A stretch of DNA of 63,787 bases, counting the filler, from Globobulimina sp. (Eukaryota): assembly GCA_003354225.1 (NCBI GenBank). It is 53 parts of 53 records of this genome, joined end to end, with 100 filler letters (N's around TTAATTAATTAA, not from the genome) between each part and the next. Parts side by side here need not be neighbours in the genome. Positions count along the whole stretch, not along the records: positions 2,413 to 3,518 come from PIVH01023366.1; 52 more parts are not named here. One strand, written 5' to 3'. Below are positions 2,413 through 38,582 of the stretch, piece after piece. A program made the position numbers and the translations under genes. The stretch's first letter is position 1; every line of letters starts with the position of its first letter. The notes under the pieces were generated by a model. That model saw nothing but the letters and a program-made list of their open reading frames with translations. It was not told the DNA's origin and ran no database searches.

Positions 2413-2867
2413 CGGATTATACTTTTTGTGCAAGGCTTATTCGCATCTATGAAATCCCGACCGAAATCCCCTTAGGGGTCTTTGAAACTACTGAATTCCG
2501 TTTTTATATTGAACATAGGGATATTTCCACGCTTAAGTGTGGTTCTAAGTATTTTGGGGCTGGAACACTCTTGCTGGATTATTACATTTGGACTGAATTT
2601 CTTGAATCTTACGCTGACCCACCGGACCTTTTTTTCAACTTAAGCGTTACTCAAATACAACGTGTGGGAATCCCTGAGCGGTTTATCCACAGAAGAGATG
2701 ACGGGAAATCAATGCCGATTCGCGTTTCGAAGTCTGAACTTACTGAACACGATATCTCAGAGGTTAAGAAAATTCATAACAAATACGGAGATGAGGTATT
2801 TTACGTGTTGAATTTTGATGGGACTGGTATGGTGGCCAAGTCGGTTCCGTTGACCTTCATTCAATGA
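2413..2867 (+). CDS. Bacterial integron cassette ORF 1, hypothetical, 5'-partial
   Basis: Frame open from 2415 to TGA 2867, intronless, higher GC; followed 13 bp later by an attC site. Confidence 0.75.
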
Positions 2868-2880
2868 TGGGAATTTGAGC

Positions 2881-2966
2881 GCCCAACAAATCACTTGTGC
2901 TTACCGGGACAGCGCAGTCGAAATAGCCAAGCTTTGTGGCCGGAAAGCACAGCTCCAGAGTTAGCC
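2881..2966 (+). mobile_element. Integron attC recombination site (~86 bp)
   Basis: R'' GCCCAAC (RYYYAAC), 5-nt spacer AAATC, L'' ACTTGTGC pairing with L' GCACAG with one extrahelical T, internal CCGG/CCGG stem, R' GTTAGCC at 2960-2966; lies between two co-oriented ORFs. Confidence 0.8.
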
Positions 2967-2984
2967 TACGGATATATTAGACAA

Positions 2985-3413
2985 GTGAAAATTCAAACTG
3001 TTCCAAAAACAGCATGGGCAACAATCGCTTTTCTGTTTTATGTCATTGTGGCTCTATTCGGTGGCGTTGTTTCAAGGCGTTTAGATCCAAACTGGGATTC
3101 AATGGCTGATGTACGGCTTGAGTATGATCTGTTTTTTGGCGGTGGGCTTTCTTTGCTATGTATTTTTGTTATTACTGGCCTCCTGCTGAACAAAAATTGG
3201 GGAAGGGTTTTTGCTGTATCTGTTTGCGGCATCCTATTTTTTTCAAACTTCATTCTTAGGTTAGCAGTTTATTTGTTCTTCTTTGTTACATCCGATCAAA
3301 GTATAATTGCAATCGACCCAGATGCTATAGTAATATCAATAATTAGTTTAACGTTACTAATTTTGCTTAATAGGCCAAGTTTCAGGAAATTATATGAGAC
3401 AACAAATGTTTAA
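2985..3413 (+). CDS. Bacterial integron cassette ORF 2, small 4-TM membrane protein
   Basis: In-frame GTG just after the attC (the ORF-track start at 2895 lies inside the attC); four hydrophobic segments; TAA followed by a second attC R'' half-site. Confidence 0.75.
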   Translation: MKIQTVPKTAWATIAFLFYVIVALFGGVVSRRLDPNWDSMADVRLEYDLFFGGGLSLLCIFVITGLLLNKNWGRVFAVSVCGILFFSNFILRLAVYLFFFVTSDQSIIAIDPDAIVISIISLTLLILLNRPSFRKLYETTNV

Positions 3414-3421
3414 ACCGGCTA

Positions 3422-3518
3422 ATTGGGTAGCCGGGGGTTTTTCTCCCCCAGCCCCCACACCACCCCACAAGCGGGTCCGCATAGGGCGGTTCATCAAGAT
3501 TGCCGAGCCGTAGCCGGG
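3422..3518 (-). mobile_element. Group IIC (attC-targeting) intron, 3' end: last codons of the intron-encoded ORF, domain V and domain VI
   Basis: Minus strand reads ...PATARQS-stop, then GAACCGCCCTATGCGGACCCGCTTGTGGGGTGGTGTGGGGG (short DV, CGC triad) and DVI GCTGGGGGAGAAAAACCCCCGGCTACCCAAT with bulged A and AT end; 3' exon begins TAGCC. Confidence 0.9.
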
Positions 3519-5142: not shown

Positions 5143-5930
5143 ATGGCAGCACCCAAAGCGAAGTTCAACCTGCAAGACGAAGGTTTGAATGGTTGGGGGT
5201 TTAATATAGATTTCGAAGAATGGATCATCAAGTAATAATGCAATATATTGAGATTTTAGATGAAGATTTTTACGATGACTATGAAGAAAGATTTGAGCGA
5301 CAAAGCATAACAGGAAAGCATTTTACAAGAAAGCAACTCGGAAATAGTCAATGGTGTCGGAACACATTGGGTATGGATGGACAAACGGCAAATTCATTTG
5401 CAACAATTGTCAGACAGAGAATCACAAAATATGAGAATAGTATGCGTAATAAAGATGGATATCATCAGACGTATAGAAAGACACCATACGCCCCACGATA
5501 TCCAACGGATAGTAAGTCACCATACGCCCCAAAAGATGTAAGTTATATTTTCCATCCATATGTACGTTGCAATTTCTATATATTATATACTGTTTTTATA
5601 CATACAACCAGAAATTGTGAGTTTGAGAAAAGAATTGTTTAAAGTGAAGGAGAATAATAATGTGTTAAAAGCACAAAATACATCATTGAATGTGTTAATT
5701 AATAGTACATTGGATGAAGCAAAGAAATTCCGCCAAGATAATAAACAAAGAAATAATTATTTATGTTCAGAGATAACAACATTGAAACAACGAATAAATA
5801 CTTTGGAGGACGAGAGGAAGGAATTTGAAATGACAATAAATAAATTAAAAGCAGAAAATGAGGAATTGAAAATACAATCAATTGATGAATTGAAATATAA
5901 GGAATGGAATTATCAAGATATTTTATTTTG
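5143..5930 (+). CDS. Spliced SAM-like/coiled-coil protein, partial
   Basis: ATG ~5143, introns ~5183-5209 and ~5538-5611; EEWDHQVIMQYI SAM-like start, coiled coil, second SAM-like start KYKEWNYQDILF. Confidence 0.6.
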
Positions 5931-24120: not shown

Positions 24121-24450
24121 TTGTAATTTCAGTTTCAAACTGAAAATCCATGCAAACACATTTCAATTCCAGTTTCAAACTGAAAATATACATAAAATCA
24201 ATTCAGTTTGAAACCGTGAATTGATTTTATTACTTTGGTATAGTAATGATACGCCGGCGGCGGCTTCGCCGCCTCCGCCTGCGTATCATTACGATTTCAA
24301 TCTGAAAAAATCAATTCACAGTTTCAAACTGAATTGATTTTATGTATATTTTCAGTTTGAACTGGAATTGAAATGTGTTTGCATGGATTTTCAGTTTGAA
24401 ACTGAAATTACAATTTGTTTGTATGCATTTTCAGTTTGAAACTGAAATTT
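24121..24450. mobile_element. Foldback/MITE-like element built from TTCAGTTT(G/C)AAACTGAA units, with a central GC hairpin, located in an intron
   Basis: Arms ~24121-24228 and ~24307-24413 are near-perfect reverse complements; centre GTAATGATACGC...GGCGGC-TTC-GCCGCC...GCGTATCATTAC (24243-24292); splice acceptor TACAG at 24471-24475. Confidence 0.75.
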
Positions 24451-24475
24451 AATCAATTTATAATATAATATACAG

Positions 24476-25226
24476 GTGAATGGGCAATAAATAATATTAA
24501 ACAATTATTATATGCATTTGCTTCGAATATAAATAATCAACAACAACAACAACAACAATATATAGCCCCTGTACCTCCACATATTGCTGATAATGTTGCT
24601 GCGCCAATTACTGCTGCTATTGATCAACATATTCATCCTCAAACATCATACAACGCACAAAGAGGTCAAAGCAAATGTAAAAATGCAAGATTTGACCCAT
24701 TATTAGATACATTTCGCACGACATCCCCGGAAATTAAAAAGAATTTAAAAAAGAAAAAGGAAATCAAATATAATGGATTTAATAGAAAAGTGAATGATAT
24801 TATTATTGATAAAGCATTGAATGATTTAAATATGAAAATTGAAATTAAAAATAAATTAAAATATTTGATATGTAATGAAGGCGAAAAATGTATGAGAAAG
24901 GATAATAAGATACAAATTCCAAGGCCTAATAAATTTATTCAGCATTTATTAAGTACCAGTCATAAAAAATGGTATTTTAAAACAAAAAAGATTGTTATGA
25001 ATGAATTAAAAGAAAAAGAAAAACAAAAAGAATTAGAACAGAAACAAAATACAATAATTGAAAATAATAAAACTATTTATTTATCGGATGCTGATGATTA
25101 TGTATGTGATTTGACTCAATTTAGTAATAATAACAATATAAATGATTCTGAAAATGATATAAATAATAATAATATTATAGTTACTGAATATATTCCAGCA
25201 ATAAAAAATAGTGTAATTGATTTGAA
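24476..25226 (+). CDS. Exon of hypothetical protein (poly-Q, Asn-rich), partial
   Basis: Frame open from the acceptor (GEWAINN...) through ORF 24790 to the contig end. Confidence 0.7.
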
Positions 25227-37077: not shown

Positions 37078-38582
37078 AACGTATACATTTATGTTAAAGT
37101 ACGTATTATATAAAGTTGGACCAACGTACATTCATTCAAAAACATCAAAAAAAGTAGGTCATTGCTAGGATTACTTAAATGCCATATAAAATGCAGTATT
37201 AATGAATATAACAACTATACAAAAAGTATTTTTGAGCAGTCAGCATATTTATGTAGCTGATATTACAATAATTCAATNNNNNNNNNNNNNNNNNNNNNNN
37301 NNNNNNNNNNNNNNNNNNNNNTTAATTAATTAANNNNNNNNNNNNNNNNNNNNNNNNNNNNNNNNNNNNNNNNNNNNATTACGCTACATCGCCACCAATA
37401 CGTACCAATGTGATTTGTGATGTTCCGGCGCCTCCAATCGATGCTATCTATGATGGTACGGCGCCGCCAATACGTACCAATGGCATTTATTACGGTACGG
37501 CGGCTCCAAACGTACCAATGCTTATTTATTGCGGTACGTAGCGCAGTGGTCATAGCGCCGTGGACAGCTGCCACCTACAAATCTCTTCTTGTGATGATAG
37601 CTCAAAGAGAGCGTCTTATTGAAGAATATTTGGGTTAAAATCCCAATCATCACATTTTTTCACCAATATAAAATCACAAATATAACTCTTGCAAAAATCG
37701 ACAATATAAATAGTCAATATATTGTTATGTACTTGTTATATTTATGTCTTATATTGCCATAGTTACACTGGTGCTATTACCTTGGTGCTTTTTCAAATTC
37801 CATTAACTCAAACTTTCGTCGGAATTTTGCGGTTTGGGGAATTTCATACTTTTATCAATATTGCGGATATCTCATAAATATTTAATTTTGACAGTTTTTA
37901 ATGATTTCCATACATTTTAACATTTCATCATATTTTTTCTTTTACAACTTTTGATCAAAAATAAAGGGTAAATCAATTAGAAATCCGTAATATGCTATAA
38001 AGATATGTTTTAAGTATTTTGTCACGTTAATTTGTAACTTTTTGGTTGATTTTTTTTGTAGCTAAGTATAACATTTTGTTGTTTTTCTTGATGTTACTTC
38101 AAAAATCGACAAAATGGCTTGCTTAAATGCTAAACAATTGGATGGTTCATCTGTTCAAATTGCAGCAACATTCGTTAATGATTTATTCACAGAGAAAAAA
38201 TCAAATAGCAATATTAATTATAATTTGGCTAAATATAAACTGCCAACACATAGTATAAATTCACACATTAAACAAGAGACCTAATGAAAATAAAATGGAT
38301 TCAATTTTTGGCAAAAATGAATATTTATGAGGATTTTTCGTTTGTAACAAATACAAGACATACAATGGAATATAATTGTGATGAATTGTCAGTTTTGGCA
38401 TTGGTGATGAGTGATATATTAAATGAAGAAACGATTGTAAAATATATGTTAAATGCAACTCATAGAGTTGAGTTGCAATCTANNNNNNNNNNNNNNNNNN
38501 NNNNNNNNNNNNNNNNNNNNNNNNNNTTAATTAATTAANNNNNNNNNNNNNNNNNNNNNNNNNNNNNNNNNNNNNNNNNNNN

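Follow-up and report, generated by a model that had tools for sequence, protein, structure and literature searches.

The contig and its cassettes

The stretch of DNA analysed here, referred to as the window, is 63,787 bases long and is made up of 53 contigs of 1105–1106 bases, with N runs around TTAATTAATTAA as joints. The contigs have G+C contents of 26–43 %, are ordered by length, and neighbours are unrelated in the genome. The contig at 2413–3518 (G+C 42 %) is the sole context for the intron described here, the other stretches of the window being unrelated. On its plus strand are the end of one ORF, an attC-like site, a second ORF and the left half of an R'' box, and on its minus strand is the 3' end of an intron, within which the contig stops at 3518.

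An integron cassette array, or a CALIN, is recognized by same-strand promoterless ORFs separated by attC sites. An attC site is an imperfect palindrome of 57–141 nt that runs from an R'' box (RYYYAAC) to an R' box (GTTRRRY).

ORF1 (2415–2867, plus strand) consists of the C-terminal 150 codons and the stop codon of a cassette gene that is cut by the contig start. It matched no Pfam family. Twelve homologues, most of about 200 aa, were found at E≤0.01 among 21 candidates. When metagenome loci that encode homologues of ORF1 were inspected, an attC-like site starting at the stop codon was present in 3 of the 31 that could be assessed, and no attC-like site followed the gene in the remaining 28. 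Alignment of the site that follows ORF1 with the three found behind its homologues revealed no homology.

The attC-like site between the ORFs, attC1, is 86 nt long (2881–2966, plus strand), with GCCCAAC as R'' (2881–2887; 7 of 7 positions match the consensus) and GTTAGCC as R' (2960–2966; 6 of 7). The inner stem is imperfect, with 11 matches and a single T-T mismatch in place of clear extrahelical bases, and the unpaired spacers are 7–8 nt. The bottom strand of attC1 reads ...GATTTGT/TGGGC, in which the published target TTGT/T is present and unoccupied (a slash marks the insertion point throughout). When both strands of the whole window were searched with a strict attC pattern (R'' 7/7, R' at least 6/7, total length 57–141 nt, inner stem of at least 10 matches), attC1 was the single match, the pattern being an ad hoc one that was written after attC1 had been seen. 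The fold energy of attC1 was not better than that of shuffled sequences (z 0.12; 112 of 200 shuffles fold as well). A relaxed version of the pattern, considered for calling arrays, gave 18 matches in 207 kb of the loci of related introns and 4 in the window, i.e. no enrichment. It was dropped because it was strand-symmetric and not enriched around the relatives.

The visible part of the second cassette (2961–3421, plus strand) extends from TTAGCC, after the G/TT crossover point, to GGCTA, the half of its own R'' box that precedes the intron. It contains ORF2 (2985–3413), 142 codons from a GTG start with a TAA stop at 3411–3413, which encodes a predicted multi-pass, hydrophobic membrane protein. 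Pfam matches to ORF2 were all sub-threshold, and none of 120 candidate homologues reached E≤0.01. No integrase and no intI gene were found in the 1.1 kb of this contig. The contig is most probably a fragment of bacterial DNA, either part of an integron cassette array or an attC cluster without a visible integrase.

The 3' end of a class C intron

At 3422–3518 the minus strand carries the final 97 nt of a class C group II intron, the remainder being cut off by the contig end. The Rfam model RF00029 (Intron_gpII, domains V–VI) matched 3491–3422 on the minus strand over its full length (1–77 of 77) in a permissive search of the 1.1 kb contig, where it scored 42.4 bits (gathering score 40; E=9.7e-07). 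A scan of the whole window with fast filters missed the intron, and reported only a tRNA at 37591–37654.

Domain V (3459–3490, minus strand) was located from the Rfam consensus alignment and an RNA fold. Its triad is CGC, at 3488–3486, aligned to the AGC of the RF00029 model. CGC in place of the AGC triad in domain V marks class C introns. Domain VI (3424–3457, minus strand; Rfam and RNA fold) has a bulged branch-point A at 3428, seven bases before the end of the intron, which ends with AAT at 3422 (...CTACCCAAT). Group II introns are characterized by a GUGYG 5' end, domains I–IV and a domain VI whose bulged branch-point A is 7–8 nt from a 3' end of the form AY. Together, the two domains seen here have a folding free energy of -50 kcal/mol (z -2.35), which was equalled by 3 of 200 shuffles. 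Translation of the 24 bases before domain V (3494–3517, minus strand) gave the last codons of an RT/maturase frame, PATARQS*. What is visible of the intron is thus limited to its two 3'-terminal domains, V and VI, and the last part of the RT frame. The preliminary description, made from the sequence alone, had proposed a group II intron 3' end with a class C-type domain V and had recommended a scan with the Rfam Intron_gpII model; the match and the fold bear this proposal out.

A junction in the probable R'' box of the second cassette

Following the stop codon of ORF2, the plus strand reads ...GTT TAA ACC GGCTA/ATTGGGTAG, exactly as had been described. On the minus strand the junction is ...GGCTACCCAAT/TAGCCGG, with 3422 as the last intron base. 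The five bases GGCTA (3417–3421, plus strand), which were identified by reading the sequence, form the left half of the R'' box of the second attC site, attC2, and on the minus strand are the 3' exon, TAGCC. The first T of this exon is IBS3. ORF1, attC1 and ORF2 are all on the plus strand and the intron is on the minus strand, so the insertion is opposite to the cassettes, as the preliminary description had it. The R'' target it named is likewise confirmed on the 3' side, where the TAGCC adjoining the last intron base corresponds to the bottom-strand T plus RRRY of an R'' box.

The intact site had been given as GGCTA-ACAA. The R'' box inferred in this way, GGCTAAC, is the exact complement of GTTAGCC (2960–2966), the R' core at which the second cassette begins, and the two boxes are each one position off their consensus, RYYYAAC and GTTRRRY, respectively. 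Integron recombination cuts R' between G and TT. The first bases of an arrayed cassette are therefore TTRRRY, and in the circular form these pair with the R'' box of that cassette. The rule that follows, that the intron's 3' exon starts with the five bases found at positions 3–7 of the 5' core of the same cassette, held in all four class 1 integron controls, namely catB3 (3' exon TAGAC, cassette-start core GTTAGAC), dfrA14 (TAACC, GTTAACC), arr-2 (TATGC, GTTATGC) and blaIMP-4 (TAGAA, GTTAGAA). The window obeys the same rule, with TAGCC as 3' exon and G/TTAGCC (2960–2966) at the start of the second cassette. As GTTAGCC has only three copies in the two strands of the window (about 116 kb), the probability of a chance copy in the 117 nt that separate the ORFs is low (on the order of 0.003). 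The complementarity and the controls thus support the proposed intact site, GGCTA-AC(AA).

A search of metagenome contigs with an exact 24-nt pattern from the end of the second cassette, for an empty or occupied site elsewhere, gave no match. In sequencing run X24, Logan contigs cover 2627–2861 and 2983–3251 without differences at depths of 4–5; there was no Logan contig in this run over 3264–3411 and none bridging 3421/3422. The same run contains several contigs that have the intron end with other flanks, diverging at 3421–3428, and in three unrelated metagenome runs the same intron end is found with many flanks that diverge at 3417–3421. This divergence of flanks places the right-hand end of a repeated element at the same base as the Rfam model does, and the repetition of the intron end with many flanks accounts for the break in the assembly inside it. 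In 23 runs other than X24, only the conserved intron end was found. A 570-nt contig from run X24 is identical to the window over 3436–3518 and continues for a further 487 nt, and may belong to another copy.

Comparison with introns in plasmids

The intron match is far above chance level, as comparisons with other introns show. A blastn search of plasmids with the 105 bases at the end of the contig returned 502 records (best E=1e-17), all of them, where annotated, under group II intron RT genes. The best matches, 79–84 % identical over 77–96 % of the query, were the 3' ends of introns beside dfrA14, catB3, catB2, fosE and aadB cassettes. The four introns in class 1 integrons that were used as controls (L001, dfrA14; L002, catB3; L034, blaIMP-4; L036, arr-2) are antisense to the resistance cassettes. 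All of the integron-associated plasmid introns end with GGCTACCCRAT/TA, and the junctions align as GGCTACCC(G or A)AT/TA.

Six attC-type plasmid introns (four from class 1 integrons, one from Methylocalor and one from Thiothrix) were compared with five class C plasmid introns of the terminator type (L035 and L037–L040, from Caballeronia, Clostridium, Sinorhizobium, Ligilactobacillus and E. coli). The 5' junction is TTGT/GTACG in all six of the former. The terminator-type introns all start with GTGCG and have another domain VI, and in four of the five they follow an unbulged hairpin, mostly then a T-rich tract. The domain VI stem of the window intron, GGGGGCTGGGGG...CCCCCGGCTACCC, is common to the attC-type introns and absent from all five terminator-type introns. 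The window intron is identical to the attC-type introns at 69–76 of its 97 bases, and to the terminator-type introns at 56–69. As these ranges touch at 69, it is the domain VI sequence and the 3' end that discriminate, and not overall identity.

The window intron thus resembles the IIC-attC introns of class 1 integrons (S.ma.I2 type) in being antisense to the cassettes, in the GGCTACCCRAT-type end followed by the T-R-R of R'', in the domain VI stem and in the CGC triad of domain V. The S.ma.I2 type also shares with the close relatives of the window intron the 5' junction TTGT/GTACGCCC and an RT/maturase without an endonuclease domain. However, only 69–76 of 97 bases are shared with the window and the RT of its nearest relative is 50 % identical; the domain VI loop in the window is AGAAAAA and its end is AAT instead of GAT; and the cassettes are resistance cassettes in the one case and orphan cassette genes in the other. 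The terminator-targeting class C introns (B.h.I1/GsI-IIC type) likewise have a class C domain V, a small endonuclease-less RT and an insertion point after a DNA hairpin, but they start with GTGCG, lack the GGCTACCC end of domain VI and follow TTGT in none of five cases. A further parallel is UHB.F1, which is described as a truncated IIC-attC intron on a metagenome contig from a hypersaline lake (PMC7923331). It too is antisense, cut at the contig periphery and located in an environmental cassette array without a visible integrase. However, UHB.F1 retains part of the RT and can be placed in a tree, whereas the window copy is limited to 97 nt.

Related introns in Desulfobacteraceae

The exact 30-nt domain V of the window intron was found in 30 loci of 15 genomes in a collection of species-representative genomes. 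The record titles of 24 of these loci name Desulfobacteraceae, Desulfobacterales, Desulfobacterium, Desulfamplus, Desulfobacula or Desulfocicer, and the others are 'Proteobacteria bacterium' (4), 'Deltaproteobacteria bacterium' (1) and Labilibaculum (1). Four genomes have 3–5 copies of the intron each. The 97 intron bases of the window are identical to these 30 loci at 83–94 positions, the best being L015, L024 and L026 (94). In addition to domain V, the window shares with this family the RT C-terminus PATAR. It differs in being cut by the contig end, whereas the relatives lie both inside integrons and elsewhere and many of them are degenerate. No published name for this multi-copy Desulfobacteraceae family was found.

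The 3' exons of all 30 relatives begin with T, and the bases that follow vary, with TAGCC in L021 and L022. In the 15 relatives for which the 5' junction was mapped, the intron starts with GTACG, as part of GTACGCCC (ATACGCCC in L028), and the 5' exon ends with TTGT (10), TGGT (3), ATGT (1) or AGTG (1). In most of them a long imperfect hairpin precedes the end of the 5' exon. Bulges in the 3' arm of this hairpin were recorded in 10 of the 15 by an automatic count and also in the printed folds of L027 and L030, and were absent in three (L007, L008 and L031). Domain I of the relatives contains a conserved ACAAC motif, a candidate for EBS1. The motif is unchanged in the copies with TGGT or ATGT as 5' exon end, and thus no compensatory change was found.

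The intron in L015 and L030 is 1,975 nt long (L015, 4399–6373) and encodes a protein of 446 aa that ends with ...HYPATAR*. In the window, the TAA stop codon of the RT frame has changed to CAA, and the frame is two codons longer (PATARQS*). The L015-type protein, that of the closest relative, contains RVT_1 (2.4e-38) and GIIM (5.5e-16) and no other domain. Its best relatives of solved structure are the GsI-IIC RT (4.6e-131) and then the group II RT/maturase 7uim (6.7e-102), with LtrA at 3.2e-41 and the maturase RT 6me0 at 2.8e-37. With the protein encoded by the catB3-associated intron it shares 50 % identity. A maximum-likelihood tree was made from 19 proteins, comprising six of the Desulfobacteraceae type, four that are integron-associated, one fragment from Methylocalor, five of the terminator type and three long-branch outgroups. 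The set excludes L008, the frameshifted L044 and two exact duplicates. In this small reference set, in which the window is represented by the proteins of its relatives, the 11 attC-type sequences fall on one side of a branch with support of 76/75. The tree is compatible with one attC-targeting lineage, and does not establish it. IIC-attC RTs have been reported to form a monophyletic clade (PMC3001079).

Only 7 of the 25 relatives in which the RT frame could be assessed have it intact. In three it is split by an insert of about 310 nt and in 15 it is deleted, truncated or absent; a further 5 of the 30 relatives are cut by the edge of a contig or locus. L027 (4026–4780) and L028 (4450–5208) are introns with complete ends that are only 757 and 761 nt long and have no RT gene. 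They are RT-less derivatives, which would need the protein to be supplied in trans.

Several of the relatives have been altered further. The three relatives with an insert of about 310 nt are L006, L019 and L031. In each of them the RT gene is interrupted at the same codon, near 220, and the insert may be a small mobile element or the result of one inherited event. The intron in L008 (2759–6663) is 3.9 kb long, with about 1.9 kb inserted after the first 130 nt. On the opposite strand of this insert is a frame that is 34 % identical to the RT, and the insert is probably a second, nested group II intron. On the minus strand of L015 (6274–7155) and L030 (6961–7548), the adjoining cassette genes run into the antisense strand of the intron and gain an identical 33-residue tail (...SGSRGFFSPSPHTTPQAGPHRAVHQDYRAVAG), the original stop codon, which presumably lay in the attC site, having been removed by the insertion.

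Locations of the related introns

The five genomes in which the locations of the relatives were determined all have integron integrase matches above the TIGR02249 curated cut-off, compared with none of 14 control genomes. These five genomes contain 18 intron loci. Six of them (L014, L021, L020, L031, L009 and L024) are 3.5–35 kb from an intI-like gene, on the array side and antisense, 11 are elsewhere, and one is on a contig of 1.9 kb. The intI-like gene near L024 is split in two pieces, both below the TIGR02249 cut-off. The pieces (G001:C2, 2364937–2367597) score 205 and 158 bits and are about 1.7 kb apart, 14 kb from L024. In L007 (about 3330–3445 and 5414–5445), one of the 12 loci without an array-side placement, a full-length intron has a CRISPR-like unit of about 30 nt (TTCAATCCACGCCCCCGCATGGAGGGCGAC) on both sides, and this would be an insertion at TTGT/T outside any attC site. 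With six loci on the array side, 11 elsewhere and L007 between CRISPR-like repeats, the targets of this intron family are integron attC sites and similar hairpins elsewhere. The same two kinds of target have been reported for IIC-attC introns (PMC7923331).

Probable insertion into the attC site and alternative explanations

We consider it highly probable that the element, of which 97 nt are known, is a class C intron of the attC-targeting type, inserted in the bottom-strand R'' box of the attC site of the second cassette, in an integron cassette context. At the locus itself, the intron end with its exact boundary, its orientation, the attC-like site upstream and the complementarity between R'' and the cassette start can all be read directly. 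Every diagnostic feature that is visible on this contig, with its 97-nt intron end, is that of the IIC-attC lineage. The published target of this lineage is TTGT/T within R'', with the intron in the opposite orientation to the cassettes (PMC7923331, PMC3001079). The folded bottom strand of the attC site takes the place of IBS2, and EBS1 and EBS3 pair with TTGT/T (PMC7923331, PMC3001079, PMC4424553).

Based on what is known of the family, the intron ribonucleoprotein would recognize the folded, bulged bottom-strand hairpin of the attC site as single-stranded DNA, with EBS1 expected to pair with TTGT and EBS3 with the next T. The intron would then reverse-splice into the R'' core after GT and before T (GGCTA/AC on the top strand), antisense to the cassettes, and its endonuclease-less RT would copy it from a replication primer. 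Once inserted, it would separate ORF2 from its recombination site, would be unable to splice from the cassette transcript and would probably block read-through into downstream cassettes. IIC-attC introns are reported to impede transcription from Pc, and they can carry an outward promoter (PMC7923331, PMC3001079, PMC4424553).

The same intron end could also belong to an ordinary class C intron located behind the terminator-like hairpin of an ordinary gene pair, with the resemblance of the flank to R'' a coincidence. Class C introns mostly target intrinsic terminators (PMC4424553), 12 of the 18 loci of relatives have no established position on the array side of an integrase, the fold energy of attC1 is unremarkable and the contig has no intI. 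However, in domain VI and at its 3' end the window intron agrees with the attC-type group and with none of the five terminator-type introns. Its 3' exon, TAGCC, is identical to positions 3–7 of the GTTAGCC at the 5' boundary of that cassette, a relation that the four controls show too. The intron is also antisense to ORF2, and any hairpin that it used must thus lie downstream of the gene and on the opposite strand, as is the case for attC, while attC1 is the single strict pattern match in the window. We therefore regard a terminator insertion as improbable. More improbable still is an assembly chimera, in which the multi-copy intron end was wrongly joined to an unrelated cassette contig. The intron end is indeed repeated in the sample with several flanks, the contig breaks inside it, and with X24 contigs lacking over 3264–3411 and across 3421/3422 the join comes from the assembly alone. 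Against this, the two parts meet precisely at the base where the intron should canonically end and at the canonical G T/T of R'', the R'' box is complementary to the start of its own cassette, and the two sides share 5 nt, which is too few for a k-mer join.

With the insertion in attC2 as the preferred reading, the state of this copy is a separate question, and the chances that it is a dead remnant or an RT-less derivative are about even. An intact RT frame is present in only 7 of the 25 assessable relatives, the RT-less L027 and L028 are among the others, and the stop codon of the RT in the window has changed from TAA to CAA. On the other hand, domains V and VI are intact and 94 of the 97 bases are identical to copies with an intact 446-aa RT, and the 570-nt X24 contig, which may be another copy, continues for 487 nt beyond the stretch of identity at 3436–3518.

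The window copy might further belong to a distinct branch of the attC-homing class C introns, centred on Desulfobacterales, with at least 3–5 copies per genome and RT-less derivatives of about 760 nt that would have to be mobilized in trans. Insertions of this branch would occur outside integrons as well, one of them in a CRISPR-like array. We put this forward tentatively, and on balance doubt it. If it is correct, these introns would be general invaders of bulged DNA hairpins that remodel the cassette arrays of sediment bacteria.

The host of the contig is probably a Desulfobacterales-like bacterium that was sequenced alongside the organism named on the assembly. A co-sampled bacterium is a plausible source, given that this is a separate, low-depth contig and that the relatives of the intron are mostly from Desulfobacteraceae. 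The intron thus marks the contig at 2413–3518 as bacterial, and probably Desulfobacterales-like, in an assembly labelled as another organism. Group IIC-attC intron behaviour of this sort has been described since 2008–2010. Environmental hosts reported for IIC-attC introns include Geobacter and Desulfurivibrio (PMC3001079), and the truncated UHB.F1 is already known from the end of a metagenome contig with cassettes (PMC7923331). The locus is hence one more environmental case of the known association between this retroelement and integrons, together with one orphan membrane-protein cassette, and has little significance beyond good annotation. A more useful by-product is the large Desulfobacteraceae intron family, with its RT-less copies and insertions outside integrons, which is of value for studies of how class C introns choose their hairpin targets.

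Other features of the window

Two further features were noted elsewhere in the window. The tRNA gene at 37591–37654 (Rfam, 47.3 bits), in which the anticodon region is shortened in the alignment, is on an unrelated AT-rich contig. A near-palindromic 14-mer, TCAGTTTGAAACTG (or its TTTC variant), is present in 20 copies with at most one mismatch, compared with 0.01 expected. All of the copies are in two AT-rich contigs (1–1106 and 24121–25226), at 279–1086 and 24129–24445, where they sit between short coding-looking stretches, and the 14-mer may form a hairpin with a role in regulation or termination in the main organism.
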